From Candidatus Poribacteria bacterium (GTDB taxonomy: Bacteria; Poribacteria; WGA-4E; WGA-3G), in contig OZ244048.1 of the NCBI GenBank assembly GCA_965215265.1, positions 1,568,001 to 1,632,000 on the forward strand: 64,000 nucleotides of DNA. Reading direction: 5' to 3'. Under the pieces are notes generated by a model. The model was not told the origin of the DNA. It saw only the letters and a program-made list of their open reading frames with translations, and ran no database searches. The translations under genes and the position numbers were made by a program. Each line of letters starts with the position of its first letter. The first letter of the stretch is position 1. Below, one piece after another: positions 4,655 through 63,595 of the stretch.

Positions 4655-4779
4655 TCGCCACTCCTCTCTCCTGCGAAGAGAGACAAAGAAAGGAATTGGG
4701 TGGGCACCACCCTCAACTTCGTAATCTTATCTCTCCTTTAGGAGAGATAAAGAATACCGAACTTGCCAATCTATAGATC
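4655..4779. repeat. Family-2 palindromic repeat cluster
   Basis: TCTCTCC..GGAGAGA(C/T)AAAGAA units flanked by a repeated ATCTATAGATCG. Confidence 0.7.
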
Positions 4780-4892
4780 GTCGGAGATGACTTAGGTTTA
4801 GTCTTTAAAAATCTAAACATCAGAACCCTCTGGCGAGATTTGTAAAGGATTTAACATAGCAGCCGCCTTTATTAGGCTCCTGTATACAAAAA
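4779..4892 (+). mobile_element. Family-1 element, partial (arm A end)
   Basis: Ends GCAGCCGCCTTTATTAGGCTCCTGTATACAAAAA, matching the copies at 13189, 23145 and 62914. Confidence 0.75.
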
Positions 4893-4968
4893 GTTGTATG
4901 CCTGCTATAAGTCCTGTTTACCTGAGTCTATTAAGTCATTATAATAAAAAAATGGAGGTTAATCAATT

Positions 4969-6657
4969 ATGTTTAAAAAAAACATCAGTGTCCTTCCACC
5001 TTGGAAGGCCGCTGATTCGCTCGCAGGAGATAGAAAATCTTACACACAGGTTTCGTTATATTCTGTCTTAATTCTAACGCTAATGTTATCAGGGTGGTTA
5101 GTTTTCTCAGCATTTGGGCATAGTGACACATCAGCATTTCTGGAGGACGTTAACAAAGATGGTGTAGTCAACATCCAAGACCTGGTGCTTGTTGCGGCTG
5201 CTTTTGGTAATGCGGCAGACCGGAACGCGCTGCAAAGTCCTGATGTGAATCGCGATGGTATCATCAATGTGCTGGATCTTGTGCGTGTGGGCAATAGTTT
5301 CGGCCAGAGAGGCGAGGTTGACAATTCGACGTATCATGATATTCAGGATTATGTGTTCGATAAAAGTTGTGCAAATAGCGTGTGCCATGCCGCGCCGGCT
5401 AACGCTGCAAACCTGAATCTCACCTATGGGCTCTCTTATGAGGATTTAGTCGGCCGGACACCGCAGAATCCTGCGGCTGCAGCGGCAGGGATGAAATTGG
5501 TGGATCCGGGGAATCCAGATAACAGTTTCCTTTTAACAAAATTGGTGGGCCCCCCGCCGGAACAGGGGACTCGGATGCCGTTTAATGCCGGGCCTATTCA
5601 TGAGGGGAAGATAGAAGCGATTCGGACTTGGATTGCGGCGGGCGCGCCTCAAGACGATCAGCTTGCCGGTATCGGAGACCTCTCTGTACTACGCGATCCG
5701 GAGGAAACGTTTGTGGCACCTGCACCGCCCGCACCTGGGCAAGGCTACCAACTCCGGCTCCCTCCCTTCAAAATTGAACCGGGAACAGAACGAGAAGTCT
5801 TCTATGCAACGCAAATTAAGGATGAAAATGGGCAGCCGCCGGCGGGCGACATCTTTATTAACAAAGTTGAGATTTATTACCCCTCTGGTAGCCATCACTT
5901 CATCGTCTATCGCATTACAGAGGAAGGATTGGCGAAGGATGTCCTGAGTAGAGGTGTGATGCCCGGTATTGCTGTCGACCCGGCAGAGAGTTTCCGAGAG
6001 CTTGATACCGAAGATCCGCAGGTCCTCGGGAATTTTGGAATTGATCGGCTTTTCGTAATAGGGACACAGACAGACGACACCTCGTTTGAATTTCCAGAGG
6101 GTGTGGCCCTAAGGCTCCCTGGCAACACAGTCTACGATCTGAATTCGCATTACATCAATCTATTGGGAACGGAGCCTCTCATCGGGGAAACGTATGTAAA
6201 TTTCTACACGATTCCGGAAGAAGAGGTGCAATACGAGGCGGTGGAAATCTTCATTTCTAATCGGAGCATTTACGTGCCGCCTGGGACGACACGGCTTGCC
6301 ACAATGGATATGTTTGTTGAGGATGAGCTCGAACGCCGGGGCCACACGCCTGATACAAAGTTGAATGTGTTCTTGCTGACATCTCATATGCACCGTCACG
6401 GCGAGTTGTTTGAAATCAATCAGATGTCGACGGATGAATTGTTGCATCGGAGCGTGGCTTATGACGATGCCCCAATAACCTTATTCGATCCGGCTCTCGT
6501 CTTAGACGTAACAGATGGACTCAGTTTCCAATGCACGCACAGCAACTATGATACGCCTACGCCTCTCGAATTCGGACTGACCTCTGAGGACGAGATGTGT
6601 ATCATGTTCGGTTATTACTATATCCCAACTGCAAATGCAGGGGAACAAATTAAGTAG
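4969..6657 (+). CDS. Secreted multidomain protein: dockerin-like repeats, c-type cytochrome-like domain, copper type II monooxygenase-like domain
   Basis: DVNKDGVVNIQDL and DVNRDGIINVLDL; CANSVCH...MP...IRTWIAAGA; SHHF, SHY, HMH, EMC. Confidence 0.75.
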   Translation: MFKKNISVLPPWKAADSLAGDRKSYTQVSLYSVLILTLMLSGWLVFSAFGHSDTSAFLEDVNKDGVVNIQDLVLVAAAFGNAADRNALQSPDVNRDGIINVLDLVRVGNSFGQRGEVDNSTYHDIQDYVFDKSCANSVCHAAPANAANLNLTYGLSYEDLVGRTPQNPAAAAAGMKLVDPGNPDNSFLLTKLVGPPPEQGTRMPFNAGPIHEGKIEAIRTWIAAGAPQDDQLAGIGDLSVLRDPEETFVAPAPPAPGQGYQLRLPPFKIEPGTEREVFYATQIKDENGQPPAGDIFINKVEIYYPSGSHHFIVYRITEEGLAKDVLSRGVMPGIAVDPAESFRELDTEDPQVLGNFGIDRLFVIGTQTDDTSFEFPEGVALRLPGNTVYDLNSHYINLLGTEPLIGETYVNFYTIPEEEVQYEAVEIFISNRSIYVPPGTTRLATMDMFVEDELERRGHTPDTKLNVFLLTSHMHRHGELFEINQMSTDELLHRSVAYDDAPITLFDPALVLDVTDGLSFQCTHSNYDTPTPLEFGLTSEDEMCIMFGYYYIPTANAGEQIK

Positions 6658-6668
6658 GAAGCCTGACA

Positions 6669-6714
6669 TTATATGAGTGGGTACTTTTTGAGTACCTGCT
6701 CATATAACGTTTTT
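6669..6714 (+). terminator. Intrinsic terminator-like hairpin
   Basis: TTATATGAGTGGGTAC..GTACCTGCTCATATAA followed by a T run, after the 6657 stop. Confidence 0.6.
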
Positions 6715-6909
6715 CGTATATTTCAGCCCAATAAAGGTCTTTTGTATACAGGAGCCCAATAAAGGCGGCTGCTATGTTAAATCCTTTACAAATCTCGTCT
6801 GAGCCTTCTGAAGCTTTGACTTCAAAAGACTATACCGAAGGTGTCTCCGACGAGATGTACATCGGATTTAACAAGACATAACCCTTGATGGGGCTGAAAT
6901 ATACAAAAA
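6710..6909. mobile_element. Family-1 element, full palindromic copy plus an extra terminal fragment
   Basis: TTTTGTATACAGGAGCCC...AATCTCGTC / GACGAGATGT...GGGCTGAAATATACAAAAA arms. Confidence 0.8.
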
Positions 6910-6920
6910 GATGTTTTCCT

Positions 6921-8813
6921 ATGGGTACCACTTATCTAAAGCAAAGCGGCTTCCTGGAGGCCCTCACGGAGCGCATTCTTGTGTGCGATGGTGCCATCGG
7001 CACGGAACTCCGAAAACGCGTCCCGTCCTATTTACAGTGCATTGATGCGTGCAATATTCATAGCACGTACGCGCCTATCGTCAAGGAAATTCACTGCACT
7101 TATCGGGACGCGGGGGCTGATGTCATCCAGACTAATACCTATCAAGCGAATAGAGAAGCTTTAGCGGTTCATGGCTTAGCAGAACAGGTAGAACTGATAA
7201 ACCGGGCAGGTGTGCAGCTTGCGCAAGCTGTGGCTGGAGATAGATGCTATGTGGCAGGTTCTGTCGGGCAAATTCCGTTTCAAACCTTAGACGCTGCGGG
7301 TACCGACCGGAGCGTCTCCACGAAAACGGTTCGCCGGCTCTTCAAAGAGCAGATGGATGCTTTGGTTCATGAAGGGGTGCAGCTGCTAGTTTTGGAAACG
7401 TTCGTTTCTGTGAGGCAAGCCGAGATTGCGACAAAGCAGGCACTCACGTACGGTGTTCCTGTAATCGTTCTCATGAGTGGGATTTCAGGTGGCACGATGG
7501 GCAGCGGGCTGGATGTCCGTGTTTTCGCCCGGGAGTTGGAGCAGTTAGGGGCGCACGCGGTTGGGATTAACTGTAGGGGGCCGCATGACTTAGTTGAAGC
7601 GATGGAACTGCTGGCACCAGTCATTAAAGTCCCGCTCGTTGTGCAACCTAACGCTGGAAATCCGAGGATTGAACAAGGAGAAATTGCGGTTTCATACACG
7701 GTGACTGCAGAGGTTTTCAGCGATTATGTAGAAAAATTAGTTGAACTTGGTGCGAACATGATAGGCGGCTGTTGTGGTACAACACCGGATTACACAGCAA
7801 AAATCCGCTCTATTGTTGGAGAACAGAAGCCGGCGGAACGGCAGACGCGAATCTTCGTTCTACCGCGCCGTATCGCAGCCAAACCATCAAAGCGTGTTCC
7901 AAACGAAAACCCCGTCCAACAAGTATTTGAAACACGCGAACGTATTGTGAGTGTAGAGACGCGCGCAAATACGTTCCCGCAATTGCGTGCGTTATTGAAA
8001 GAAGCGAAAACCCTCGCCCAACTCGGTGTAGATTTATTTGATGTGACTGACAATTCTGGGGCTGTGGTTAACATCGGAGCAGTTGGCACAGCGTATCGCC
8101 TTCAGCAATCCACTCAGATTCCGACACTTATCCATTGGACAACGCGTTCGCGAAACCTGATTAGTATGCAATCGCATCTTTTGGAAGCAGAGACGCTCGG
8201 TATCCGCGGTATTGTCGCGCTATCCGGAGACCATCCGAAGGCAGGTCCCTATGAAGCAGCGAGCCTTGTCCCTGATGTGCGGGGAGCGGTGCAACTGATG
8301 AAACTCATCGCGCGGTTAAACCGGGGGGAGCTCGCAGACGGTTCGTCGATTGGCGAACCATGTTCGTTTTACTATGGCGGTGGGTTTACAATCGCCGAGA
8401 ATCTTAAGCCCCATGTCAAACACCTCACAAGTAAAGTAGAACAAGGTGCTAAGTTCGCTTATACGCAACCGGTCTGGACGTTTGAAGATGTTGTGCATAC
8501 ACAGAAAGCGACCGAACACCTCGGCATCAAAATCCTTTACGGTATCCTTCCCTTAACGAGTTTCCGTAGTGCGTCCTACCTACGGGACAACTTGGGCCTC
8601 TATATTCCACAGTTCATCGTTGAAAAATTCCACGACCTTGGCGATACCGCGGGGCATGAACTTGGAATGAAGTTAACCTTGGAATTGGTCAAAGAACTCC
8701 GGAATCAGGAGCAGATACCTATAGATGGTATCTACCTGATTCCGCCAGCTCGCATGAATTGGAAAAACAGGTGCCGCGCGATCTCGGAAATCGTCAAAAC
8801 GTACCGTTTTTGA
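6921..8813 (+). CDS. Bifunctional homocysteine S-methyltransferase / methylenetetrahydrofolate reductase (YitJ-like)
   Basis: DGAIGT, GINC, GGCCGTTP, followed by an MTHFR domain (GDHP, TQP); the track start at 6885 lies inside a repeat. Confidence 0.88.
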   Translation: MGTTYLKQSGFLEALTERILVCDGAIGTELRKRVPSYLQCIDACNIHSTYAPIVKEIHCTYRDAGADVIQTNTYQANREALAVHGLAEQVELINRAGVQLAQAVAGDRCYVAGSVGQIPFQTLDAAGTDRSVSTKTVRRLFKEQMDALVHEGVQLLVLETFVSVRQAEIATKQALTYGVPVIVLMSGISGGTMGSGLDVRVFARELEQLGAHAVGINCRGPHDLVEAMELLAPVIKVPLVVQPNAGNPRIEQGEIAVSYTVTAEVFSDYVEKLVELGANMIGGCCGTTPDYTAKIRSIVGEQKPAERQTRIFVLPRRIAAKPSKRVPNENPVQQVFETRERIVSVETRANTFPQLRALLKEAKTLAQLGVDLFDVTDNSGAVVNIGAVGTAYRLQQSTQIPTLIHWTTRSRNLISMQSHLLEAETLGIRGIVALSGDHPKAGPYEAASLVPDVRGAVQLMKLIARLNRGELADGSSIGEPCSFYYGGGFTIAENLKPHVKHLTSKVEQGAKFAYTQPVWTFEDVVHTQKATEHLGIKILYGILPLTSFRSASYLRDNLGLYIPQFIVEKFHDLGDTAGHELGMKLTLELVKELRNQEQIPIDGIYLIPPARMNWKNRCRAISEIVKTYRF

Positions 8814-8824
8814 ATCACACATCA

Positions 8825-8915
8825 CATCAAAGGATTTGGGCCCTAATCCAAAGACGAGATTTGTAAAAGAATTTATCAAAACACCAGGCTTTTATGTGCT
8901 CCTGTAGACGAAAAA
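8825..8915 (+). mobile_element. Family-1 element, degenerate arm A copy
   Basis: GACGAGATTTGTAA...GCTCCTGTAGACGAAAAA. Confidence 0.6.
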
Positions 8916-8924
8916 GGAACCTTG

Positions 8925-13130: not shown

Positions 13131-13362
13131 TTTTGTATATCTCCGTACCATCATCACTTATGTCGCGATGTCCTATGTGTAAATCTCGTTTTTTTGTATA
13201 TTTCAGCCCCATCAAGGGTTATGTCTTGTTAAATCCGATGTACATCTCGTCGGAGACACCTTCGGTATAGTCTTTAAAATCATAACATCAAACGGCTCAG
13301 ACGAGATTTTCACAGGTTTTTATATAGCAGCCGCCTTGTTACGGGCTCCTGTATACAAAAAA
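13131..13362 (-). mobile_element. Family-1: ~60-bp truncated unit plus a full palindromic copy
   Basis: TTTTGTATATCTCCGTACC...AAATCTCG then TTTTTGTATATTTCAGCCC...CTCCTGTATACAAAAAA. Confidence 0.85.
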
Positions 13363-17097: not shown

Positions 17098-17700
17098 ATG
17101 TCAAATACAGTTAATCTAAAAATATTTCAAAAAACGTTCGATTCTTATTTTTGGAAATGGTACGGAGTTGTGAGCATCCTTTATGTTTCTATTTTCTGCA
17201 CCTACACTGCCGTGGCATTCGGTATCCTCACAAGTGAGTCTGAGTTACCTCCGTTTCTCTACCGACTCATTGCCCCGCTTGAATATTCAGAGTGGATGGG
17301 TGGCATTCCAATTGGCGGAAAGCAAATCGGTTTTCTAACATTTGGTGCTATGTCAGTTGGGGCTGTGTCTATCGGTGCCTTTTCTGTTGGGATTGTTTCT
17401 GTTGGTGCTTTTTCAATAGGAGTTTTTGCGTTTGGTGGTAACTCTTTGGGTATCATCGCCATCGGAGGAGGGACAAGTTTTGGGTGCTTTGCCGGAGCGG
17501 CAAAGACAAGCGGGAGATTTGACATCGGTAAGGCGTTAGGTGTGTTCGCGGTTGCTCCTGAAACTTATGGTGTCTATACGTTATCTTACAATGGCGGCGG
17601 CACCTACAGTTTATCACCATCTCGTGCGGACGCGGAAGCGGTTGCATTTTTTTGCCGGTGGTTACCAAAATTCAAGAAAACTTTTCACAGTCCGGCTTAA
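17098..17700 (+). CDS. Hypothetical membrane protein with Gly-rich pentapeptide repeats
   Basis: GAMSVGAVSIGAFSVGIVSVGAFSIG. Confidence 0.6.
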   Translation: MSNTVNLKIFQKTFDSYFWKWYGVVSILYVSIFCTYTAVAFGILTSESELPPFLYRLIAPLEYSEWMGGIPIGGKQIGFLTFGAMSVGAVSIGAFSVGIVSVGAFSIGVFAFGGNSLGIIAIGGGTSFGCFAGAAKTSGRFDIGKALGVFAVAPETYGVYTLSYNGGGTYSLSPSRADAEAVAFFCRWLPKFKKTFHSPA

Positions 17701-18050: not shown

Positions 18051-18170
18051 TTTTTCGTATATCTCCGTACCATCAACGTCTATGTAATGATAACTCGTGT
18101 GTAAATCTCGTCGGAGCCTCACTAGGTTATGATTCCTCAATAACTTTACGTGCTAACTCTTCAATCTCGA
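18051..18170 (-). mobile_element. Family-1 insertion carrying a coding tail
   Basis: Fixed end GGTACGGAGATATACGAAAAA; 5' part encodes EIEELARKVIEES*. Confidence 0.85.
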
Positions 18171-18261
18171 AATGATATCGCCATCATAGGTGAGGGCGAC
18201 AAAACTCCACTCGTCTTGTTTCCATGTACCACCTCGGATATGCGTTGCGCCCTGATCTGCG

Positions 18262-18347
18262 TTTTTTCGTATATCTCCGTACCATCAACGCTTATGTCAT
18301 GAGTACTCGTGTGTAAATCTCGTCGGAGTTTTTCGATGCTATGAATC
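18262..18347 (-). mobile_element. Family-1 truncated insertion
   Basis: Fixed end present; flanked by duplicated AACG. Confidence 0.85.
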
Positions 18348-18939
18348 GTTAACAGCAATACTTCCGTAAAAATCGGCAGCTCCGATTTGTATGGTGGGGT
18401 TATGCCAATCGCGTTCAATTAGCCGTGTGTGCGGATTGGGGGGTGCAGTAGTCGGTTTGACCCAGAGGAGATACGTGAAACCGTCAAGGTAATCGTCGGT
18501 AGTTTTGCTTGCGAGGATGGCGACGTGGCCCGTGCCATCAAACTCCAACCCTTTCCCGAGTTTTCCATCTGTCCATTTCGCTTTTACTACGAGTCCATCA
18601 TTGCCGTTTCCGGAACGATCTTCGACTTTGTCGCCTTTTCCTTCGTCAAGCAGCCAGATGCCAATAATCGATTCCGGATCTATTTTGGCAAAGGCATCGT
18701 GCTGGTAAATCTGAATTGGGAATATCGCTACCAGAGTTATGAGACAAAATGCGATACATGTTATAGTTCTCATTTTAGAAGTTTCCCCTTTGCTTAGATC
18801 TGATTTTACTACATTTAAAAGATTATAGTATTTCCCGTTTATTGTCAATGAACTTACGAGATATTCATTAGCCCCATTTTTTTGCGTGAGTAATATATAG
18901 ATGCGATGCGTTGCTGTCAGAGAGAGCGTGTCTCGGGAA

Positions 18940-21879: not shown

Positions 21880-22113
21880 TTTTTGTATATCTCCGTACCA
21901 TCAACGTCTATGTAATGATAGCTCGTGTGTAAATCTCGTCGGAGCCGTTCGACGTTTTGACTCTAAATATCACCTTCCTCCTCCTCCGTATCTTCACCGC
22001 TTATCGCTTTTTTGTATATCTCCGTACCATCAACGTCTATGTAATGATAGCTCGTGTGTAAATCTCGTCGGAGCCGTTCGATGTTTTGACTCTAAATATC
22101 ACCTTCCTCCTCC
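21880..22113 (-). mobile_element. Two tandem family-1 truncated copies (129-bp period)
   Basis: GTATATCTCC at 21885 and 22014. Confidence 0.9.
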
Positions 22114-22829: not shown

Positions 22830-23144
22830 TTTTTCCTCCCCTAAGTTTAAGTGAGGGTTTTTCGTTAATAATGGGACGATGGGTCCTCATGATGTCACCG
22901 CCGACATCCGTTTTTGTTTGCACGGTTTTTCGTTAATAATGGGACTATGGGTCTCTCCCAAGCCTTAGCGTATTGCATTTGAGCCCTTTTGCAAAAAGTA
23001 TAAGATAAGTCGCAAAAAATATCAAGAAAAATCAGTTTTTTTATACATGAAAGCGATAAGGCGTGCTTAGCGTGAACGGACTCGTGCCCATTTCGCCAGA
23101 ACTGCTTTGGCCGGATTTTTTCTTCATAGATAGAGACGCATACG

Positions 23145-23321
23145 TTTTTTTGTATATCTCCGTACCATCAACGTCTATGTAATGATAGCTCGTGTGTAAA
23201 TCTCGTCGGAGACTCCTTAGGTAATGTCTTTAAAATCATAACATCAAACGGCTCCGACGAGATTTGTAAGGGATTCAAAATAGCAGCAGCCTGGATTGGG
23301 CACCTGTAGACAAACAAAAAA
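23145..23321. mobile_element. Family-1 element, full palindromic copy
   Basis: Arm B - AAATCTCGTCGGAG...CTCCGACGAGATTT - arm A. Confidence 0.85.
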
Positions 23322-23554
23322 AACGGAATCATCAACGAAAAACGACGCTAGAAATGTAAGCGCTGCTACGTCCCATGCAAACACAGCACATCACGCGGCA
23401 GAATGCCCGTAGAACGCAGATGAACTGTCTTTATCTACTGTCATGGACTTTCGGCTCTCTCCAAACTGCAAGCCTCCGATGGAGCCACAAGTTCAGCACT
23501 CAACACGCACAACCGTCGCTACTGTACCTTCATCTACCTATGTTAGGATTCCTA

Positions 23555-24611
23555 TCAACTCGCCTGTAATCGTCGAATTCGGGCAGGCGTGTCGTCATTC
23601 CGAATCTCGGAAGAGAGGATTCGGAGGTGCAGGTCTTGAATAGGGAGATTTACCTTTACGCCGCCCCGGCGGTGCGATTCGTGCAGTGCGACGGCAATCT
23701 CTAACGCGGCACGTACGTCTTCACCGGAACATTTCGGGGAGTTCTCGTTTTCAATGGCGTTAATCAAATCGGCGACAATCGTTAGTCCCATGCCTTGCAT
23801 TCTGACAGGCAGTGGGAAGGGGCACTTTGCCGGCACTCCGCGTCCGCGTCGTCCGCCGGGAACCATACGGATTAATTCAAAGGTTTCGGCATTGTTATTC
23901 GTATAGTGCAGCCCGCAACAAGGCTGCTGCTATATTAAACCCTTTACAAATCTCGTCGGAGGGTTCCGATGTTTAGATTCAATACATCAGGAGGCTCTGG
24001 CGAGATTTATACAGTAATTTACAAAACATAAACCTTTATGGTACGGAGATATACGAAAAATTGAACGGGTACGCCCGGTTGTGCCGATAACATCGACTTC
24101 CCAGGGTGCTGCCCCACATGCGGTACTGCGTAGATATGCGCGTACGCCGTTATCAAAAACGAGGTAACCGTTTCCCGAGAGATCGTTTTCATCGGCGGCG
24201 GCTTCATCGGATTCCATTTCGCAGAAAACCCATTTGACATTTCCGCCTGCCATGTAGCGAAGAATATCAATGGCGTGACTGCCGTTATGGGAGAGCCCAC
24301 ATTGGGCATACACGGTCACTTGCAGCACGTTGCCGATTTCATCAGCGTCAATTAATCTACGGGCTTCGCTAAAGAACGGATTCCAGCGGCGCACACAATT
24401 TATCGCCAAGGCGACACCTTCTGTGCGGCACGTCGCCACCATCGCATCTGCTTCAGCAAGACTAAGCGAAATCGGTTTTTCTGCCCAAATTGCTTTGACA
24501 CCTGCACGGGCAACATCTTTCACAATAGTAGCCCGAATTCTTGATGTGGTGCAAACGCTGACGATGTCCAAATTCTCTTTCGTCAGCATCTCTTGATAAT
24601 TGTTGTAAAGG
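23555..24611 (-). pseudogene. Gfo/Idh/MocA oxidoreductase, 5'-truncated and interrupted by a family-1 element
   Basis: EKP and HNGSHAID motifs; the two halves share one frame across the 23900-24058 insertion; N-terminal GxGxxG missing. Confidence 0.85.
23898..24060. mobile_element. Family-1 full copy inside a gene
   Basis: TTCGTATAGTGCAGCCC...GGTACGGAGATATACGAAAAA. Confidence 0.85.
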
Positions 24612-24781
24612 TTTTTCGTATACTGCAGCCCAATAAAGGCGGCTGCAATGTTAAAACCTTTACAAATCTCGTCAGAGCCGTTTATGTCTACGATTTTAAA
24701 GACTATACCTAGATAACCTCCAGCGAGATTTACACACGAGCCATCAAAATCATAGGCGTTGATGGTACGGAGATATACGAA
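24612..24781. mobile_element. Family-1 full copy at the junction of the pseudogene and the RM system
   Basis: TTTTTCGTATACTGCAGCCC...GGTACGGAGATATACGAAA. Confidence 0.85.
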
Positions 24782-24826
24782 CGGTATCAGCTTCTCAAAC
24801 ATAATTTAGTCAGAGTTAGAAAAAGA

Positions 24827-25810
24827 TTATTTTGATTCTTGAAAAAGAAGCAGCTGAACAGATTGAGCTCGGCTTGTATCCGCTGAATTCTGCTTCTCTT
24901 CAATGTAAGCGCGAAGGCAACGGGCAACATACTCAGCTTGTTTGACTGGTACGGCGTTTCCAATCATCTGCTCCACATCGGTTTTGGAGCCAGAAAAATG
25001 AAAATTTTTCGGAAAGGTTTGGAGATAACTCCGTTCCAAGGTTGTGAGTGGACGGACTCCGGCTGAAATTGGAGCCGTGTCTTTTGGATGTGTTTTGTAA
25101 GTTTTAGGAATTGGGCGATTGACTCCTCGAACCGTTGGACTCGGTTCATCAACGCTAAAAACGGCGCGTCGGCTATAGTTGCGAGGATGCCGGTAATAGT
25201 GAGCTATGCCGAGGCTGTCTCCCAAATAATCCCGTACTGTTATGGGTATCGTCGTCAACTGGTCATCCAGATAACTTCCAAGGGCTCTTCGTTCTTCAGT
25301 TGTCTCAAAGGATATTCCCAACTCGCCAATCAGAAAAAGCCGTTTTCGCCTTTGGGGCACCCCACACCGGTTTGCCTCTAAAATCCGCTGCGTCAGCGAA
25401 TATCCAGCCGCTCTTAAAATCTCATCTGCACGACGATATCGTAGACTTTTTACGGTGCGTTCTACATTTTCCATGACAAACCACTGTGGCTTGGTGTGTG
25501 CTACAATCTGTGCAAAGTTCACGGTGAGGTCTGCTCTACCTAATTCCTCATTGCGTTTTCCTGCGTGTGAAAAATCTTGACAGGGTGGTCCGCCAATAAG
25601 CATGTCAAATTGATACGCATTTAGTGTTTTTAAGGTCTGCTGCCATTTGCTGAGATCGCATTCGTGTATTTTATGTGCAAAATTATCTCGGTAAACTTGT
25701 ATTGCTGGGTGCCAGTTATCAAAAGCAGCAACGGCATCAAATCCGGCATTTTGGAATCCGAGCGTCATGCCGCCGCATCCTGCAAAGAGATCTATGAATT
25801 TTAGTGCCAT
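24827..25810 (-). CDS. DNA (cytosine-5)-methyltransferase, M.HindV/M.HgiDI-like
   Basis: FAGCGG, GGPPCQDFS, ENV, QRRKR, GNAVP; YYRHPRNY region. Confidence 0.92.
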   Translation of the reverse strand: MALKFIDLFAGCGGMTLGFQNAGFDAVAAFDNWHPAIQVYRDNFAHKIHECDLSKWQQTLKTLNAYQFDMLIGGPPCQDFSHAGKRNEELGRADLTVNFAQIVAHTKPQWFVMENVERTVKSLRYRRADEILRAAGYSLTQRILEANRCGVPQRRKRLFLIGELGISFETTEERRALGSYLDDQLTTIPITVRDYLGDSLGIAHYYRHPRNYSRRAVFSVDEPSPTVRGVNRPIPKTYKTHPKDTAPISAGVRPLTTLERSYLQTFPKNFHFSGSKTDVEQMIGNAVPVKQAEYVARCLRAYIEEKQNSADTSRAQSVQLLLFQESK

Positions 25811-26926: not shown

Positions 26927-27170
26927 TATGTTTCAAGTAGCAAACTCCGCTAGCAAAGAGTCTCTATTCCTCCTCACGGTACTTTGAACTCCGGCCGGAT
27001 TCCGCGCATCTGCCATACATCGATGCCGTGTCTCTTGCCTTTATCATTGCAGATGGTCAAGAGACTATCCGGCAGCCGAAGGAACCGTGGTTAATTCTGC
27101 CGTGAATTTGTAGATTGTTCGATCGTATTCACCTATATAATAGTGAACAGAAGGTTTATGACTAAACAGA

Positions 27171-27450
27171 TTTTTTGTATATCTCCGTACCATCAACGCC
27201 TATGTAATGATAACTCGTGTATAAATCTCGCCAGTGGCAGGGCAGGATAGGTAATCTTTTCTCATGGACAAAAAAAGAATACCTTTTACCTGCCACCCAC
27301 TGGGAGCCATTCTAGATTATGATTCTTCAATCACTTTTCGCGCAAGCTCCTTAATCTCTACAGGATCCCCACCTTGTTGTACTGCATTGGATTCGTGGGC
27401 ACAGAAACCTTGTTTAGACAAAAAGGAAGCAAACGTTCCACTTCAACGGT
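27171..27450 (-). mobile_element. Family-1 copy with nested family-2 repeat and a long coding tail
   Basis: Fixed end at 27171; family 2 at 27232-27303; tail encodes ...GDPVEIKELARKVIEES*; distal boundary uncertain. Confidence 0.75.
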
Positions 27451-34408: not shown

Positions 34409-34498
34409 TTTTAGAGTCAATACATCGAACGGCTCCGACGAGATTTACACACGAGCTATCATTACCTAGACGTTGATGGTACGGAGATATACGAAAAA
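34409..34498 (+). mobile_element. Family-1 truncated copy on the plus strand
   Basis: TTTAGAGTCAATACATCGAACGGCTCCGACGAG...GGTACGGAGATATACGAAAAAA. Confidence 0.88.
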
Positions 34499-37500: not shown

Positions 37501-37896
37501 CGGTTGATACTGGACCTGCGGCTGCCGTTTTCAAACCGCATCAGATACGGTAAAGAGAGCAAAGAAGGCACTGTCGATGTGTTAGAAACCTATTGCTATC
37601 TCAAGGGGCTCCCTATTCAGAGACGGCTCCGTTTCGATTTGAACGGGCAAATATACCGGGTCGTCCGAAGCGGCACGCGAGCCGTGGTATTCCGTAACGT
37701 GATTGATGGGCTGGACGATACACCACAGTTTTTAGAGATTCTCGCGGATGAACGGCTACAAGGCATCACTCGGTTAGACGTTAACTACGACGCAGATCGG
37801 AACAAGTTGCTAGAAGAATCCGGGCTGCGGGATATCCACTGTATCACAACATCGGATTTTGACACCAGCGCGGTCTGGGATAATGCCGATGAATAG
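34580..37896 (+). CDS. mod: Type III RM modification methylase, split by a frameshift at a C9 tract (37410-37418)
   Basis: DPPY and DFFAGSGT; ORFs 34580-37429 and 37423-37896 join with +1 C. Confidence 0.8.
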
Positions 37897-37916
37897 ACGA
37901 ATATTTCGGGGAACCC

Positions 37917-40900
37917 ATGGCACTCTACCAAGACTATGAAACGAAAATCCTAACTGAAAACGGCATTGACATCCGCGATGAGGTTATAAAACGAGATATT
38001 GAGCGGTACGACCCAGAACGTGTGTTACAACTGCCCCCAGAACCGTTAGAACGGATCCTGAAATTCTTAGAGGATTACAATTACCTGACCGGAAGTCATT
38101 TTGAACTCCGTTACTATCAGGTGCTGGCATTGCTGTTCACCGAGCAATTCTTTATCGATCGGGAGGATTCGGAGGTTGATGCGGAGGCCCGGCGGATGCT
38201 CGCATACTGGATGGCAACCGGCAGTGGCAAAACCCTCATCATGCACCTTAACATCCTCCAGTATCTACACCATTTCTTTGGAACAGAGAGCACTTGCCTC
38301 CAAATCTACCTGACAACTCCCTTAGCAAATCTGATTAAACAGCATGAACGCGAACTGGTACCGTACATCCGTCAGTTAAACGAAGTTTATAACAGACGCA
38401 TTGAACTGGTTATTGAGACGACGCAAGGACTCTTGCAGAAAGCACCTGACTATTTTGAGTTACCAAATGATGGAAAAACGTGTCGGCTCATTTTAGCAGA
38501 CGAAGCACATATCGGGTTGACCCGCCAAGAATCTGGAAAATTCAGAGACCTCCGCAACCGCCTCAATGTAGGGGACTCCTTTCTATTTGAATACTCCGCC
38601 ACTTTCCACAACGTCGCCAAAGAATTGCGAGACGAATACGATAAGGCGATCATCTATCGATACGACTACGCCCGATTCTACAACGACGGGTACGGGAAAG
38701 ACCATTTTTTCAAACCGATCGCCGCTGATACCGTAGCCACCGAATCCGCAAAGCAGCTCAGGGACAACCTGAATGTATCTTTCTGGGTTATGGAGGAAAA
38801 GTTACAGACCTTCAAAAGGGTACGTGATGCGGAAGAGTACGACCTTGATTTGACGGTACATCGGCCCTTAATGGCGTTTATGGGACATACGGTAGAAAAT
38901 CCGAAGGATGAAGGCGAAGCGGATGAAGTTTCTGACATTCAGAAGGTGTTAGATTACCTCGCTGCGTTGAGCCCAGAGGAGCGTGAAAAATTTAATTCTG
39001 TTTTCCATGGGGATATTATCGGGCCCCTGGTCGTCGCGTGCAATCCGGATAACAACAGCGAGCTGCTGCTCTCTTATGGCGAAGGCGAAAAATGGGGCAT
39101 GATTAACGTCGGCGAAGGTGTCCGTTTTTACAACAGCATCGAAAATCCCCGTATTGAAACCCGCATGGAGACAATAGCGAACCCGAACCTACACTTTGAA
39201 AACCTCGATACAGAGACCAGTCCCATAAATGTTCTTATTGGCAGCCGGAAGTTTGCAGAAGGCTGGAACTCCTATCGGCTCTCTGTCATAGCTCTGATTA
39301 ACTTGGGCAGTGCCAAAGGGAATCTGATTATCCAGATTTTTGGGCGTGGTGTCCGACTCCGTGGGAAGGGCGGCGATGGCAAACGCCGGTATTTGCAACA
39401 GATGCTAAACTACCCGCCCTCTTCTTATAAAGATAAGGAGTCCGACATCCGACGTTTGGAAACCTTGACCGTTTTCAGCTTGCGCCGCAGCTACCTAGAA
39501 CGTTTTCTTAAGGAAGTACACGATGGAGGTATCCCGCTCTATCACACCTTCAAGATTCAGGTGAATCCAACACTTTTCAAAGTCGATACTGATACAGACC
39601 TCCGCTTTGAGGAATATAGGGAGCAATTGCCCATCTTTAAACAGGCTGGCAGCGACACGAGTACAATCAAACGTGTGACGCTCAGCGACGGGGACATCCG
39701 TTATACCTATTTCGATGGTACTACCCAAAAGTGTGATGTTATCAGTAATTGGCGAGAACAGACGCTGGACTACCGGACGGATCGGACGCGCGATGTTCCT
39801 AATGTTTATGAAGACCTGCAGCGCTATAATAAAGTCTACTTTCACTATCTGAACAGAGCCCGGCTTGCTACTGTCATCCGGCGTGAGGCTGAGAGAAACG
39901 GTATACAACTCTATGGCCACGAAAATAGCGAACCGACTATAACAGATATTCTAAAGCTCGTCTCAGATATCCGCTATCGACAGTACGATACGGATGCCAT
40001 CGCTTGGACAGATCGGCTCAATCGCCGTGTAGTCATCGATGTCATCCAGAAACTGCGGAACCGCATCAACACGCATATCAACCGGGCGAACTACGATTAT
40101 CGCCATGTGGAACGTGAGGATTTTATCTATGAATATACTGTGACACGAGAATTCGAGACGCGCGAGGCCTATGAACAGTGCTTGCAGCAGATCGACGGAG
40201 CAACACAAACCGGTAAGAACCCGGAAACCCGCATCCGGAGCCTGTTAGAATTATTGTCGGACCCGAAACATCGACAACATAGACATATTTACAAACCTCT
40301 TCTATTAGACCCACGGGAACAGAACACCCCTGACTTGAAAAACGTCAAAATTTCACCGGACCGCTTAAATGCAGGCGAACGCAAATTTGTTGAAAATCTG
40401 ACAGATTACATCAAGCAAGCCTACCACGACAACGACCGGTATCAGTTTTACCTATTGCGGAACGTACAGAAAATCGGGATATATCTGGAGAGCGACGACG
40501 GCAGCTATTTTCCAGACTTTGTACTGTGGGTAGTAGATACAAAAATAGAGAGAACTCACATTCTTTTCATTGATCCGAAGGGGCAGCGCGGCATCATTGA
40601 TGATGCGACGCTCAATTACAGAGAGCACCCCAAAATCCGACTTGCCCGTAAATCGAAAGATTGCACGCTCAATATGCTCGAAGAACGTTTAAAAGCAGCA
40701 TTCGACGGGACGTTCTGTCTAAGCGCCTTCATCCTCCTCCGCGACAGTTCAAAAATGGGCTACAATAAGCCTTCGCCGTGGATCTACGAGAATATGTTGG
40801 CATATAACATCCTCCGGTTGAATTGGCATGAGAAAACGGAGAGTGGGGCGACTAGTCAACTGTTCAACGGTAAGTCGTATCTGGATTTAATGTTTGAAAA

Positions 40901-40919
40901 AGCGGGAATTGAACCGTGA
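37917..40919 (+). CDS. res: Type III RM restriction subunit
   Basis: MATGSGKT, DEAH, SAT, QIFGRGVR, C-terminal PD...DPK. Confidence 0.88.
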   Translation: MALYQDYETKILTENGIDIRDEVIKRDIERYDPERVLQLPPEPLERILKFLEDYNYLTGSHFELRYYQVLALLFTEQFFIDREDSEVDAEARRMLAYWMATGSGKTLIMHLNILQYLHHFFGTESTCLQIYLTTPLANLIKQHERELVPYIRQLNEVYNRRIELVIETTQGLLQKAPDYFELPNDGKTCRLILADEAHIGLTRQESGKFRDLRNRLNVGDSFLFEYSATFHNVAKELRDEYDKAIIYRYDYARFYNDGYGKDHFFKPIAADTVATESAKQLRDNLNVSFWVMEEKLQTFKRVRDAEEYDLDLTVHRPLMAFMGHTVENPKDEGEADEVSDIQKVLDYLAALSPEEREKFNSVFHGDIIGPLVVACNPDNNSELLLSYGEGEKWGMINVGEGVRFYNSIENPRIETRMETIANPNLHFENLDTETSPINVLIGSRKFAEGWNSYRLSVIALINLGSAKGNLIIQIFGRGVRLRGKGGDGKRRYLQQMLNYPPSSYKDKESDIRRLETLTVFSLRRSYLERFLKEVHDGGIPLYHTFKIQVNPTLFKVDTDTDLRFEEYREQLPIFKQAGSDTSTIKRVTLSDGDIRYTYFDGTTQKCDVISNWREQTLDYRTDRTRDVPNVYEDLQRYNKVYFHYLNRARLATVIRREAERNGIQLYGHENSEPTITDILKLVSDIRYRQYDTDAIAWTDRLNRRVVIDVIQKLRNRINTHINRANYDYRHVEREDFIYEYTVTREFETREAYEQCLQQIDGATQTGKNPETRIRSLLELLSDPKHRQHRHIYKPLLLDPREQNTPDLKNVKISPDRLNAGERKFVENLTDYIKQAYHDNDRYQFYLLRNVQKIGIYLESDDGSYFPDFVLWVVDTKIERTHILFIDPKGQRGIIDDATLNYREHPKIRLARKSKDCTLNMLEERLKAAFDGTFCLSAFILLRDSSKMGYNKPSPWIYENMLAYNILRLNWHEKTESGATSQLFNGKSYLDLMFEKAGIEP

Positions 40920-40937: not shown

Positions 40938-41022
40938 ACCCCAGTGGGTGGCAGGTGGTGCCCACCCACCCTTTTCCAGTCTCTCCTACAAGGAGAGACA
41001 AAGAATACCTATCCTGCCACTC
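40938..41022. repeat. Family-2 palindromic repeat between convergent genes
   Basis: CCCAGTGGGTGGCAGG...GTCTCTCC.GGAGAGACAAAGAATACCTATCCTGCCAC. Confidence 0.8.
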
Positions 41023-42801: not shown

Positions 42802-42905
42802 TTTTTTGTATCTCTCCGTACCATCAACGTCTATGTAATGATAGCTCGTGTGTAAATCTCGTCGGAGCCGTTCGATGTTTTGACTCTAAATATCACCGTC
42901 CTCCC
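42802..42905 (-). mobile_element. Family-1 truncated copy
   Basis: Near-identical to the copies at 21880 and 22008. Confidence 0.88.
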
Positions 42906-44028: not shown

Positions 44029-44340
44029 TTTTTTGTATATCTCCGTACCATCACCGCGTATGTAATGATCACTCGTGTGTAAATTTCGCCAGTGGCAGGA
44101 TAGGTAATCTTTTCTCATGGACAGAAAAAGAATACCTTTTACCTGCCACCCACTGGGAGCCATTCTAGGTTATGATTCTTCAATCACTTTCGTCAAGCAG
44201 CCAGATGCCACTAATCGATTCTGGATCTATTAGTGCAGCACCACAACGCCTGATGTGATGTTAACCCGTAAACAAAACTCGTCGCCCGCCCACCCAAATC
44301 CTTTGATGTTTAGAATCAATACATAAGAAACCTCTGGTTG
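44029..44340 (-). mobile_element. Family-1/family-2 composite, 43-bp LamG fragment and a second degenerate family-1 copy
   Basis: 44029-44190 matches 27171-27337; 44231-44337 resembles 23904-24000. Confidence 0.75.
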
Positions 44341-44935: not shown

Positions 44936-45030
44936 TTTTTTCGTATATCTCCGTACGATCAACGCTTGTGTAATAATAACTCGTGTGTAAATCTCGTCAG
45001 ACCCGCTCTAGGTATAGTCTTTAAAAATCA
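44936..45030 (-). mobile_element. Family-1 truncated copy
   Basis: TTTTTTCGTATATCTCCGTAC...GTCTTTAAAAATC. Confidence 0.85.
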
Positions 45031-45088: not shown

Positions 45089-46780
45089 CTAAGATTGGGC
45101 GGCCAAGAGTTTCCGTAGATTCCGTATACCTATTTTGTAAAACAGAGCGAGTCCTCCAGCGATGCACACACTCACTACTCCAAGCCAAGCAACTTCTCCA
45201 ATGTGCAAAGTTATCATCGGCCCGCTTATCAGCACCAGATCTGCGAGAATCGTGAGCATGAAAGTTAAAGCACGTAATAGTGGCTGGGATCTAGCACGGA
45301 AATTCAATTCTGCCATCCAGGGCAGCGTGCCAATGGCGGTGTTCAAAGCACAAACCGCCGATAGGCTTAAAACAGGCGTTAATAGGAACGGTAGCCAGGC
45401 ATTTACCGGAATTTGGAGTAGATTCAAAGCAATTAGCGTCCAAAATTCAGTGTAAATGAACGCACAGAGCAACCCTGTCAGGAATTTACTCGTGTACGCC
45501 AATTCAGGTGTAACTGGAGTCACTTTCAACATCCACCAGGTTTTTGCCTCATCGTAAAACCCGCGGCAACTCAACCTGAAAGTGATGAGGATACTGTAAA
45601 TCATTATCTGCACACTAAGCGTGAGGGCATCGTTCACATCTTCAACGCTGCCTCGCGCAAGTAAGACACCGATATGGACTATTAAAAAGAGCGTCAGCAT
45701 AACGATGCCGATTATTCCGCCCCTATGCCTAATGAAAACCGTAAAGTCTTTTAACATCATTGCTCGTACGCGTTGAAGGAAAGTTCCACGCGCGAATGAA
45801 AAAAGCCCGGTAGTACGGGTAACACGTTTCACTGTGCGATGCCACACGCGCTTTGATTGCAAGCACAAGATATTTTCCCAGCCTTTTGGATAAATCTTTA
45901 TCGCTAGGAGCACTGTGAGACAAACAGACATGAAACTGCCGGCAATAAGAAGAGCCCCGTACTGCATCCGTGCACCTGCCGATTCATCTATCCAACTGAA
46001 CATCAGTCGCCCGAGCCATTGATGCGGATACCATGCAGTCCCTAACAGTTCTGCCTCTACGCCTACATTTCTGGTCGAAGCCCACTTCAAAAAGAACTGC
46101 TTTATCTGCAGTAGGTCGAATCCAACTTCGAAGTTGGGCACTAAAAGCATGAATCCCACTAAGAATCCGACGGCTACGCTTACTGCAGTAGCGAGCATCT
46201 TGAGTGTAGAAAGCAGCTGGCCGGATGAAAAGAATCGTGCTATCACCATCATGCAGATCGTCACATAACTCGCAATCAGAAGGAGTAAGCAAAAGCATGC
46301 CGGAACCAGCGTCACGTAAAAATGCCACGGGAGTTCGAATATTTGCCCGAGTGCGACCCACGGAGGTCCCAACAAGCAGAGCAGAGTCAGGAAACGGGTT
46401 CCAGTCATCTGAACGAACTTAACTCCGAAAATCACGACCTGCGGTATCGGTAGGGAACGTAATAGGACACTGTCTGCGGCTTCATAAAGCACATTCAGAG
46501 AAGTCTCCATCAACTCTTTGGCAACGATGACAGATCCAAATAGTATAAACCCGTTAATCACAGTGAACACTAGGGCAGGTGGGGCTTCGTCCATGCGTAA
46601 GGATGCGAAAATTTCGTTTCCTAACACCGATAGCACAAGGATGAAAATCAGGTAACCGATTGCCTTCAGAAAGTATTTACGCTGTGGTTGATGTTTAAGT
46701 TCATTTAGCCATCCTTGCCAACTTGCCTTGAGTAAAATTTTTGTTTGGTCAATTTTTGTATCTCTCCGTACCGTCATCAC
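45089..46780 (-). CDS. Putative ABC transporter permease
   Basis: Multiple TM segments, LLRSLPI, KD....R; downstream of an ABC ATPase; the predicted start lies inside a repeat. Confidence 0.7.
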   Translation of the reverse strand: MMTVRRDTKIDQTKILLKASWQGWLNELKHQPQRKYFLKAIGYLIFILVLSVLGNEIFASLRMDEAPPALVFTVINGFILFGSVIVAKELMETSLNVLYEAADSVLLRSLPIPQVVIFGVKFVQMTGTRFLTLLCLLGPPWVALGQIFELPWHFYVTLVPACFCLLLLIASYVTICMMVIARFFSSGQLLSTLKMLATAVSVAVGFLVGFMLLVPNFEVGFDLLQIKQFFLKWASTRNVGVEAELLGTAWYPHQWLGRLMFSWIDESAGARMQYGALLIAGSFMSVCLTVLLAIKIYPKGWENILCLQSKRVWHRTVKRVTRTTGLFSFARGTFLQRVRAMMLKDFTVFIRHRGGIIGIVMLTLFLIVHIGVLLARGSVEDVNDALTLSVQIMIYSILITFRLSCRGFYDEAKTWWMLKVTPVTPELAYTSKFLTGLLCAFIYTEFWTLIALNLLQIPVNAWLPFLLTPVLSLSAVCALNTAIGTLPWMAELNFRARSQPLLRALTFMLTILADLVLISGPMITLHIGEVAWLGVVSVCIAGGLALFYKIGIRNLRKLLAAQS

Positions 46781-46975
46781 TTATGTCGCGATGTCTTATA
46801 TGTAAATCTCGTTTTTTCGTATCTCTCCGTACCATCAATGTCTATGTAATGATAGCTCGTGTGTAAATCTCGTTTTTTCGTATCTCTCCGTACCATCAAC
46901 GTCTATGTAATGATAGCTCGTGTGTAAATCTCGTCAGAACCGTTTGATGTATTGTATTGACTCTAAACATCACCT
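46752..46975 (-). mobile_element. Three stacked family-1 units (~60, ~61, ~103 bp)
   Basis: Three GTATCTCTCCGTACC motifs; the first two units end at AAATCTCG. Confidence 0.9.
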
Positions 46976-50771: not shown

Positions 50772-51126
50772 TTGGCAGGATAGGTATTCTTTGTCTGTCC
50801 ATGAGACAAGAAACCTTTTCCTGCCAATCTATAGATCTGATAGAATTATGCCGTGTTAAATAGTGCAGTCAACCATGTACTGCAATTCACGTCCGTTCGC
50901 GGACTGTAGTTTTTAATGCTACGCCAATCAATACGGAATCGTTTTCTCAATAGATACATCACGCCATTGTTAGGTAAAAACAAAAAAAAGTGGCAGGTTC
51001 GGTATTCTTGTCTCTCCTGCAAGGAGAGACAAAGTGGCGAGATAGGTATTCTTTCTCTGTCCATGAGAGAAGATAACCTTTTACTCGCCACCCACTGGGA
51101 TAACCTTTTCCTGCCACCCACTGGGG
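50772..51126. repeat. Cluster of family-2 repeats
   Basis: GGCAGGATAGGTATTCTTT..., CCTGCCACCCACTGGG (50772-50838 and 50990-51126). Confidence 0.8.
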
Positions 51127-56636: not shown

Positions 56637-56711
56637 ACCCAATGGGTGGCAGGTAAAAGGTATTCTTATCTCTCCTGAAAGGAGAGATAAAGAATACCTC
56701 TCCTGCCACTT
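56637..56711. repeat. Family-2 repeat
   Basis: GGGTGGCAGGTAAAAGGTATTCTT.TCTCTCC..GGAGAGA.AAAGAATACC..CCTGCCAC. Confidence 0.8.
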
Positions 56712-58566: not shown

Positions 58567-58589
58567 GGCGGAAGAAGCACGGGGCGTGC

Positions 58590-59697: not shown

Positions 59698-59780
59698 AGG
59701 TGTTTGTCTTGACTTGAATTAACCGTCTATCAATCCCTCCAACCTGCCACTTTTGGTCCGAGAGACTTTATCCATACCGT

Positions 59781-60893: not shown

Positions 60894-61230
60894 GTTTTTC
60901 GTAGAGTTTCTATCCGTGTGATTTATACCGTAATCCCCATCGCAGTTGCACGCCGACAAACACTGTTTTTAAGGATGGCCATCTCTATTTTCTGCAACGA
61001 CAAACTAACTCGCTCCTACAAAGGCACTATATATTATACCTAATTTTGGCGCAAAAGTCCAATTTCAACCGTGGATTAAACTGACAACACTAAGGGCATC
61101 GCGCATCTTTCATGTTTGCAACTTAACTGCTTTGATGAAGGAAACGCGTTAAATCTTCATTCAAAAAACGTGGCCGGCACTTAATTCAGGTGCTCTCTCT
61201 ACAAATTTGAAAAAAATAAATAAGAAGCGT

Positions 61231-62898: not shown

Positions 62899-62913
62899 GA
62901 GTTTAGATTAACC

Positions 62914-63082
62914 TTTTGTATATCTCCGTACCATAAAAGTTTATGTCGTGTTAAATCCGATGTAGATCTCGTCGGAGACGCTCTAGGTAATGTCTTTAAA
63001 ATCATAACATCAAACGGCTCTGACGAGATTTGTGCTAAGGTTTACATAGCCGCAGCCTTTATTGGGCTCCTGTAGAGAAAAG
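62914..63082. mobile_element. Family-1 full palindromic copy
   Basis: Both arms present. Confidence 0.85.
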
Positions 63083-63085
63083 ACC

Positions 63086-63400
63086 TTATTTCAGGATGGC
63101 CATCTGGCGTGTGGCTTGATGCCTGGATGCATCCGCATGCAAAACCTATAGTCTATAGAAATAGACACCACTTGCCACGCGCTCACCCACGGCATTGCGT
63201 CCATCCCAATATGCCGCACGCGTGCGCTTCCGATAGATACCCGCAGATTGGAAACCGAGTGATAACTTCCGGATAGGTTCGCGATTTGGTGTGTGGATAT
63301 GAATGGAGACCTCGGCATCATGTGCCAAATCGTAAGGTATCCACGTCTCTGGGTTAAAAGGATTTGGATAGTTAGGAAGCAAAACAGTCTCTGTAGGCAT
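63086..63400 (-). pseudogene. Orphan C-terminal FlgD-Ig/T9SS-A-like domain with an internal TAG
   Basis: LLPNYPNPFNPETWIPY...YWDGRN..GE.VASGVYFYRL* continues in frame to ATRQMAILK*. Confidence 0.75.
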
Positions 63401-63493
63401 ACCCCTGTTAAGGGTCGTTTTGTCGAGGCACGCCTCTGTATTCTCTTAATTGGATTTTCATGCATTGAGCGAATAACTCCTATTATTTATCGC

Positions 63494-63595
63494 TTTTTTG
63501 TATACAGGAGCCCAACACCAATCTATGTTATGAAAGGAATTGGGTGGGTGGGCGCATAAATCTCGTCGGAGTTTCTCTCTGTTTAGATTCATAAT
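63494..63595 (-). mobile_element. Degenerate family-1 arm A copy with a family-2 fragment
   Basis: TTTTTTGTATACAGGAGCCCAA...GAAAGGAATTGGGTGGG...AAATCTCGTCGGAG. Confidence 0.65.

Follow-up and report, generated by a model that had tools for sequence, protein, structure and literature searches.

The BOX elements of Streptococcus pneumoniae are modular intergenic repeats in which one module is present in tandem in variable number; we know of no transposase for them and of no description of a fixed tip lying by start codons. Repetitive extragenic palindromic (REP) sequences, together with bacterial interspersed mosaic elements (BIMEs) and the REPIN/RAYT systems, are non-autonomous intergenic repeats of high copy number that are found alone, in inverted pairs or in mosaic clusters, are passed on within lineages and, according to published work, are thought to move without classical terminal repeats. 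Those REPs that are tagged by a CGTC tetranucleotide 'apparently lack a dedicated transposase', in the words of the paper describing them (PMC3733652). Here we describe a family of 61-nt intergenic cassettes, which we call arms, in a genome of Candidatus Poribacteria. The arms were analysed in positions 1,568,001–1,632,000 of contig OZ244048.1 (assembly GCA_965215265.1), a stretch of 64,000 nt referred to as the window and numbered from its first letter, and in the whole source genome (G000; one contig of 4.83 Mb with 48% G+C). With about even confidence, we regard them as a REP/BIME-like family of non-autonomous modular DNA cassettes that is restricted to a lineage and largely quiescent.

Arms and BOX elements are both modular and have a tandem module; they differ in sequence, module sizes and host. 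With REPs, BIMEs and REPINs the arms share the habit outlined above. However, REPs are described as hairpins of 20–40 nt with a GTAG or CGTC tag, whereas arms are 61 nt long and do not fold on themselves; BIMEs are described as alternating in orientation, whereas arms commonly follow each other head to tail (242 same-strand neighbours); and a REPIN/RAYT system would be expected to include a single-copy, repeat-flanked Y1 gene, of which none was found in G000. The CGTC-tagged REPs (Di Nocera et al. 2013, PMC3733652) are the closest described parallel for the missing enzyme, and CGTC also occurs in arms. Their stems of 8–9 bp, loops of 4–5 nt, short unpaired tail and predominance of head-to-head dimers are unlike the arms.

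A sequence-only reading of the window had reported about 29 copies of a dense dispersed family with one fixed, A-tailed end. The family is real: the fixed end, GATGGTACGGAGAKATACRAAAA, matched the window at 22 places when 3 mismatches were allowed, against no match in 100 shuffles, and a profile of the single arm identified 35 arms at 18 loci spanning positions 4828–63571. Run genome-wide, the arm profile found 834 arms at 387 loci in G000, 420 on the plus strand and 414 on the minus strand. A 15-nt core of the fixed end occurred 347 times in the genome with up to 2 mismatches, unevenly and most densely at 0.8–2.0 Mb and 4.0–4.6 Mb.

An arm measures 61–64 nt from its outer tip (a T-run and GTATA) to an inner block, AAATCTCG, and usually continues into half of a central segment. 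The tip was intact in almost all arms (805 of 834 begin at model positions 1–7), and loss was confined to the inner side, where 707 arms reach the inner block or extend further and 127 end before model position 62. The fixed end recognized by the sequence-only reading belongs to the tip of a single arm subtype, but tips are retained in all arm types, and the pattern of a fixed and a variable end therefore holds for all of them. The lengths at the variable end do not form a smear but fall into few classes: the arm alone, the arm with a half-centre that ends near the TTTAAA midpoint, and a truncated minority. With a palindrome profile of 171 positions we obtained 542 non-overlapping matches in G000 (118 full, 282 right-only, 128 left-only and 14 internal), showing that either side can be missing; the right-only copies peak at model positions 92, 112, 111, 121 and 82. 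The earlier view that this is not the ordinary decay of a two-ended MITE (miniature inverted-repeat transposable element) is borne out by the loss always affecting the inner side.

Full copies (~170 nt) consist of two arms of different subtypes that face each other across a short central stem. The six in the window lie where they had been reported; they align over ~175 nt and all share the inner pair AAATCTCGTC / GACGAGAT. Downstream of ...CTCG, 473 of 686 arms continue into the central segment and at least 92 into another arm's tip, while most of the remaining 121 show nested small repeats or a weaker next-arm tip. Among 3322 matches of at least 93% identity between loci, 2099 comprised single arms and 24 whole palindromes, and such matches had sharp limits: they set in at the T-run and broke off at model offsets 61–62 or 67. 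Judging from these matches, the recently amplified unit is the single arm and not the whole palindrome.

The copies had also been described as imperfect palindromes with arms of ~65 bp. This applies to their termini, where the T-run and GTATA form terminal inverted repeats of only ~10 nt on full copies, and to the central stem of ~14–17 bp. It does not apply to the arms as a whole, as facing arms are less alike over the variable 40 nt (0.48 identical) than random arm pairs (0.56), and none of 111 facing pairs reaches 0.8. Folded as single-stranded DNA, a full copy pairs only at its termini and central stem (dG −23.7 kcal/mol, z −3.6). A mutual-information scan of the arms gave a subfamily signal with only two or three covarying pairs and no conserved internal hairpin, and CGTC is present in the inner block and in many tips without a REP stem-loop. 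By these sequence comparisons, full copies are not true long palindromes and the family is not hairpin-driven. A likely reason for the unlike arms is the instability, in bacterial cells, of long inverted repeats that match closely. A search of Rfam gave no matches at gathering score in the window and none at E≤1 in positions 22900–24900, which hold three full copies. At many arm loci (e.g. at 819.5 kb and 4115.4 kb of G000) a GC-rich variant centre, GCCCGCCCACCCAAATCC, takes the place of the usual GGAGCC; this variant sometimes forms a small hairpin of its own.

The arm loci of the window are as follows (> and <, arms in either orientation; >< denotes a facing pair).

4828–4892, minus strand: solo arm with its tip on the right (arm profile; the palindrome model extends the match to 4769–4891)
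6710–6909, both strands: full copy with an extra 28-nt tip fragment at its left (>><)
8813–8917, minus strand: 105-nt insert of arm and half-centre, absent in the related genome G001, which gives open reading frame (ORF) 6885–8813 a new stop codon
10932–11543, plus strand: five tandem 122-nt units (arm, centre and 17 nt; 122 nt × 5.0), 98% alike, between convergent genes
13131–13362, both strands: full copy with one further arm stacked at its left (>><)
18051–18390, plus strand: two arms, 212 nt apart; ~204 nt shorter in strain data set X6
21880–22113, plus strand: two tandem 129-nt units (129 nt × 1.8), 99% alike
23145–23317, both strands: full copy (><), sharing 96% identity with the one at genome positions 817243–817412
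23895–24060, both strands: full copy (><)
24611–24781, both strands: full copy (><)
27170–27234, plus strand: solo arm, immediately followed by a repeat of a second family at 27235–27295
34433–34498, minus strand: solo arm whose tip faces the beginning of ORF 34580–37429 (DNA methylase)
42802–42867, plus strand: solo arm
44029–44284, plus strand: two arms in the same orientation with a second-family repeat (44093–44148) between them
44936–45001, plus strand: solo arm
46753–46938, plus strand: three head-to-tail arms with a 61-nt period, the outer of another subtype and the inner two nearly identical
62913–63083, both strands: full copy (><)
63493–63571, plus strand: solo arm

Tandem copies, which had likewise been noticed from the letters, were located with Tandem Repeats Finder as the arrays of 122 nt × 5.0 and 129 nt × 1.8 and as one of 61 nt × 2.2 at 46801–46934. 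At 6710–6909, an ATG lies 3 nt past the A-run of the right tip and is in frame with ORF 6885–8813.

The sequence-only reading had proposed comparing empty and filled sites for target duplications. We made this comparison with G001, a genome of the same genus that is syntenic with G000 at ~77–84% identity and holds arms itself, and with paralogues within G000. Six clean empty sites were obtained, four by comparison with G001 (window 8813–8917 and loci 84a, 311 and 145) and two from paralogues (loci 39 and 193) whose flanks are 83–98% identical. Target duplication was found at none of the six, with no direct repeat of 2 nt or more. At window 8813–8917, G001 reads ...CCGTT^AAGG... without interruption (the caret marks the junction), while the window carries the 105-nt arm and half-centre with no duplicated flank; the insert replaces the stop codon of the upstream gene and leaves the downstream Shine–Dalgarno sequence untouched. 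The paralogous junctions were base-exact (CCAT^AAATCC and ACG(T/C)T^GAATTA). The base before the insert was usually T and the flank past the tip usually A or AAGG-like, so that the junctions are mostly of a T^A type beside A-rich or Shine–Dalgarno-like sequence, with no fixed tetranucleotide across the six sites. With insertion at such steps, many tips come to lie immediately at a start codon.

In most of the 98 flank pairs considered in G001, the spacer was short and free of the element; base-exact G000/G001 junctions were few because the spacers are too diverged. At locus 84 (G000 1275465–1275744), two solo arms interrupt a stretch that G001 conserves and in which it apparently encodes protein. 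The first, an insert of 87 nt, keeps the frame and is read through; the second adds a stop, so the host gene may be split. At locus 287, the orthologous site is filled in both genomes, with the inner block in common and a tip family specific to each genome.

The arrangement of arms at the 387 loci of G000 was modular. There were 155 solo arms and 74 plain facing pairs, the rest being stacks such as >><<, ><<< and >>>>>><<. Neighbours on the same strand numbered 242, of which 107 had a period of 60–62 nt and ~29 a period of 28–49 nt, the latter representing short tip fragments stacked beyond full arms. Facing pairs were frequent (185) and tip-to-tip neighbours (<>) rare (20). Only 22 of 97 adjacent stacked arms were at least 90% alike, and most stacks therefore consist of different subtypes and are not local duplications. 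Additional arms, often of another subtype, accumulate on the outer side of resident arms.

Paralogous genes offer a second view of this turnover. G000 contains ~10 paralogous two-gene modules, each with a 128-aa ORF that overlaps an N6/N4 DNA methylase gene (430–499 aa; 75–79% protein identity), among them those at 223–227, 548–550, 818–819, 1195–1199, 1395–1397, 2776–2778, 4115–4117 and 4829–4831 kb. In seven of the ten, an element lies directly past the stop codon. The module flanks are 91–95% identical, and in six of the seven element-bearing modules the left arm and centre are kept while right arms vary in their subtype, in how many there are or in how complete they are. Arms therefore change faster than their surroundings, and they have been exchanged between paralogous loci.

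At the level of strains, we compared short-read contigs of four data sets from four studies over 20 kb. The arms at which contigs break off there are the same in each data set; most joints in strain contigs are repeat artefacts, since short-read contigs stop at arms, and were set aside. The most divergent data set (X6) had ~0.3–0.9% other letters per contig. Its ~204-nt shortening at the 212-nt tandem (window ~18.05–18.35 kb) was the sole structural difference seen. The examined loci thus look fixed on the time scale of these data sets, which goes partly against the active element that had been proposed from the window.

Arms are strongly intergenic: 85% of arm bases lie outside long ORFs, while long ORFs cover 85% of G000. 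Between co-directional genes, the tip of solo arms was downstream in 82 cases and upstream in 24. At the edges of loci, an exposed inner end pointed towards a stop codon 139 times and towards a start codon 50 times. Where tips face gene starts, the commonest layout has the start codon immediately past the A-run, and fragments of 14–20 nt are often found between a full tip and the ATG. Tips containing GGAG were more frequent at gene starts (100 of 272) than at stops (46 of 210). A replication-strand test gave no result in G000, as the GC skew was too weak to place origin and terminus.

The family was found in few relatives. The exact tip was absent from 30 of them. A loose arm pattern (inner block, 38–58 nt, tip) matched 170 times in G000, 54 times in G004 (a genome of another genus in the same family) and 17 times in G001, compared with 0–3 times in the other 118 genomes of the order and 0–2 times for reversed-pattern controls. 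Each of the three arm-bearing genomes has tip families peculiar to it; G004 also has full copies and a 20-nt tip stutter (×3). In public collections, the exact tip occurred once each in two unrelated contigs of metagenome-assembled genomes, and a central-stem pattern gave two unrelated GC-rich matches in metagenomes. We found no description of the arm family in a limited search of the literature.

An IS605-like element of G001 (tnpA and tnpB) carries a solo arm between its genes in at least five copies (one of them at L012 1360–1620), and its 322-aa tnpB frame begins downstream of the arm. We rejected this element as the source of arms, as its own ends, inspected by eye, have neither tip nor inner block. 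Inverted repeats of 183 nt and 162 nt in G004 were set aside too: one pair encloses an OEP/HlyD operon, the other a 125-aa ORF, and neither encloses a transposase.

Which enzyme could move such units? The sequence-only reading had called the element non-autonomous, with no coding partner in the window, and this extends to the whole of G000. Matches to Y1_Tnp (PF01797; control positive in 6 of 14 genomes), TnpB and IS110 were absent from G000 with positive controls, and tblastn of the TnpA and TnpB of G001 against G000 returned nothing below E 0.8. Y2_Tnp (PF04986) gave no match either, but this search was uninformative because the control genomes were silent too. DDE_3 detected transposase gene fragments only and DDE_Tnp_1 weak matches only. 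For tyrosine recombinases (PF00589), positive in all 14 control genomes, G000 yielded just one match, to a fragment that contains a stop, and hence no Xer-type gene at E≤0.001. The one reverse transcriptase match (RVT_1) lies within the cassette of a diversity-generating retroelement (DGR). This DGR, at 1416.7–1421 kb of G000 (L017 738–4945), looks complete: besides bAvd and two genes with FGE-sulfatase domains, it has the genome's only reverse transcriptase, of 354 aa.

Among serine recombinases, G000 has one strong gene, which is interrupted by a repeat of the second family, and a weaker second match that carries two stops. The strong gene lies just downstream of a full copy; we rejected it as the mobiliser of the arms, as none of 40 genomes of the taxonomic family, G001 and G004 included, holds a relative at E 1e-10. 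It is a weak lead for a G000-specific burst. The Rpn-like Transposase_31 proteins (24 matches in G000, present in 32 of 41 family genomes) were rejected too, being absent from arm-bearing G001. Multi-copy MgtE_N proteins and proteins of 340 aa and 339 aa match no transposase family in Pfam or NCBIfam. No repeated gene-sized element ending in arms was found in G000, whose multi-copy genes encode methylases and Rpn-like, MgtE_N and FGE-sulfatase proteins, and neighbouring arms that face inward at a distance of 400–8000 bp formed only 10 pairs (435–7697 bp). Among relatives, Y1_Tnp matches numbered 34 in G001 and 3 in G004. G001 also has many TnpB matches, no RVT_1 match and few arms, and Y1 genes are present in G002, G003 and G005, whose arm-pattern counts equal the background. 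As a genome, G000 is strikingly poor in known recombinases and transposases. Its large families of paralogues include 17 proteins with an MgtE_N domain, the 24 matches to Rpn-like Transposase_31 and dockerin-bearing FGE-sulfatase proteins.

These findings can be assembled into a tentative mechanism for a REP/BIME-like cassette family. An enzyme acting in trans would cut and join the 61-nt arm at one constant junction, ...CTCG^TTTTT..., and would leave no staggered cut, so that an HUH-like nick-and-join enzyme or a site-specific recombinase appears likelier than a DDE transposase or a reverse transcriptase. A nick-and-join or site-specific activity fits best, and a reverse transcriptase is the worst-fitting mobiliser. 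New arms would join the outer side of resident units, and arms would be swapped between loci. The present family in G000 would stem from a past burst specific to this genome, with change now occurring mainly in tandem copy number, and the mobilising enzyme may have been lost. Tips bearing GGAG would be kept preferentially before genes, probably within the translation start region.

Integron cassettes resemble arms as discrete cassettes with a fixed junction beginning G^TT, serial addition in one orientation and no target duplication. In contrast to an integron, however, arms are spread over 387 loci in both orientations and not gathered in one array, and the PF00589 match of G000 is a broken fragment. 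The attC core reads GTTRRRY, which the arm junction G^TTTTTYG does not fit.

Several points weigh against the reading as a cassette family of this kind. No mobilising enzyme was identified, so transposition itself is something that we infer, and a lost enzyme is hard to square with the existence of over 2000 arm pairs that are at least 93% identical. The search for orthologous empty sites covered 1.2 Mb of G001, where 44 of the 98 flank pairs were aligned and only 4 were 70% or more identical in both flanks of the gap. The clean empty sites are only six, and four of them rest on a genome diverged by ~20%, in which junctions may shift by 1–2 bases. Locus 287 can be accounted for by concerted evolution or conversion no less than by repeated insertion. 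The position statistics of arms rest on crude longest-ORF gene calls, and strain contigs break at repeats, making rare empty sites invisible in that comparison. Between the GGAG of the tip and the ATG there are ~13 nt, more than the 5–9 nt at other genes of G000, and a role for the tip in translation start is no more than plausible.

A bolder form of the same idea takes the arm as a mobile 61-nt cassette that is added, stacked and swapped at its fixed junction without target duplication by a host function or by an enzyme that belongs to none of the known families of transposases, recombinases and reverse transcriptases, and that delivers a translation start region (GGAG and an A-rich spacer). 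This is a conjecture that we entertain as possible and hold to be rather unlikely.

Arms could instead be functional spacer modules that are not mobile today and perhaps never were, serving translation start, mRNA stability or protein binding and spread and made uniform by recombination, conversion and slippage. The enrichment of GGAG tips at gene starts, the ATG straight after the tip, sites that are fixed among strains with only tandem copy number varying, the filling of locus 287 in both genomes with genome-specific tips, arm swaps between paralogues and the lack of a transposase would all be expected of such modules. However, the unit boundaries are base-sharp, stacks combine unrelated subtypes, and arms are inserted into otherwise conserved sequence, including the coding region at locus 84. 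Moreover, the conserved blocks of 8–14 nt are short for RecA-type exchange. We consider this explanation unlikely.

One-ended rolling-circle transposition by an HUH enzyme of the IS91/Helitron or IS200/IS605/RAYT type, from the tip to alternative inner signals, would produce several of the features seen. Like products of IS91, ISCR and Helitrons, arms insert without duplication, have one constant and one variable end and form head-to-tail stacks; solo arms show a strand bias, and the arm-bearing relatives own Y1 transposases. However, G000, the genome richest in arms, has neither a Y1_Tnp match nor a tblastn match to the TnpA of G001, whereas Y1 genes are present in the three genomes with background arm counts. 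The ends of the G001 IS605-like element show no visible likeness to arms, and arms have no conserved internal hairpin; the Y2 search, whose control was silent, tells nothing either way. No HUH gene was found in G000, the T^A-like junctions are unlike the targets of IS91, ISCR and Helitrons, and the units are 61 nt long and not gene-sized. Taken together, this makes the rolling-circle explanation quite improbable.

A MITE of the DDE type (e.g. IS630-like), whose parent insertion sequence (IS) has been lost and of which solo arms and stacks are decay products, is very unlikely. Arms do resemble such MITEs in small size, terminal inverted repeats of ~10 nt (T-run and GTATA), intergenic position and high copy number, and G000 holds DDE_3 fragments. 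In contrast to DDE MITEs, they lack target duplications (none at six of six empty sites) and a parent IS: inward-facing distant pairs are 10 only, and no gene-sized repeat ends in arms. The keeping of the tip in 805 of 834 arms while inner ends are lost is not random decay, the two arms of a full copy are unlike, and it is the single arm that amplifies.

Least probable of all, and in our view barely credible, is the target-primed retrotransposition of a SINE-like element suggested by the sequence-only reading, in which arm RNA with an A-run would be copied into nicked A/T-rich targets by a reverse transcriptase acting in trans to give a fixed 3′ end, 5′ truncation and pile-ups: the fixed A-run end with truncation only at the other, the short tip fragments stacked past full arms (28–49 nt, ~29 of 242; the G004 stutter ×3), the A-rich tip-side flank at most empty sites and the orientation of solo arms along transcription (82 versus 24) agree with it, but it is left unsupported because the only reverse transcriptase of G000 belongs to the DGR, and arm-bearing G001 has no RVT_1 match, none of the six empty sites shows a target duplication, unit lengths are grouped at 61 nt (a 60–62-nt period in 107 of 242 neighbours) with a conserved motif and not a random point as inner boundary, and full copies hold two opposed arms.

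The window contains further repeats and genes. The second repeat family is palindromic, ~55–100 nt long and bounded by TGGCAGG ... CCTGCCA; a strict pattern found 90 copies in G000, of which 27 lie inside arm loci, often adjoining the inner block of an arm. Its copies in the window are at 27235–27295, 40949–41019, 44093–44148, 50773–50826 and 56647–56708. Positions 34580–40919 encode a 949-aa protein with a DNA methylase domain and then a ResIII/DEAD helicase protein of 1000 aa, and a solo arm lies immediately upstream of the two genes; the pair looks like a type III-like restriction–modification system. Short tandem repeats are present within ORFs at 34047–34114 and 17342–17414 (12 nt × 5.7, and 15/30 nt).

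That BOX, ERIC and CGTC-type REPs have no known mobiliser is a long-standing puzzle. The arm family, for which G000 holds no intact candidate mobiliser among the known families searched, presents the same situation with an unusually clean anatomy: a base-sharp 61-nt unit, insertion without duplication, ordered stacking and arm swapping. If an unknown enzyme moves the arms, their conserved junction would be a direct handle for finding it. If the tip serves as a translation start region, the arms would have rewired expression downstream of many of the 387 loci.

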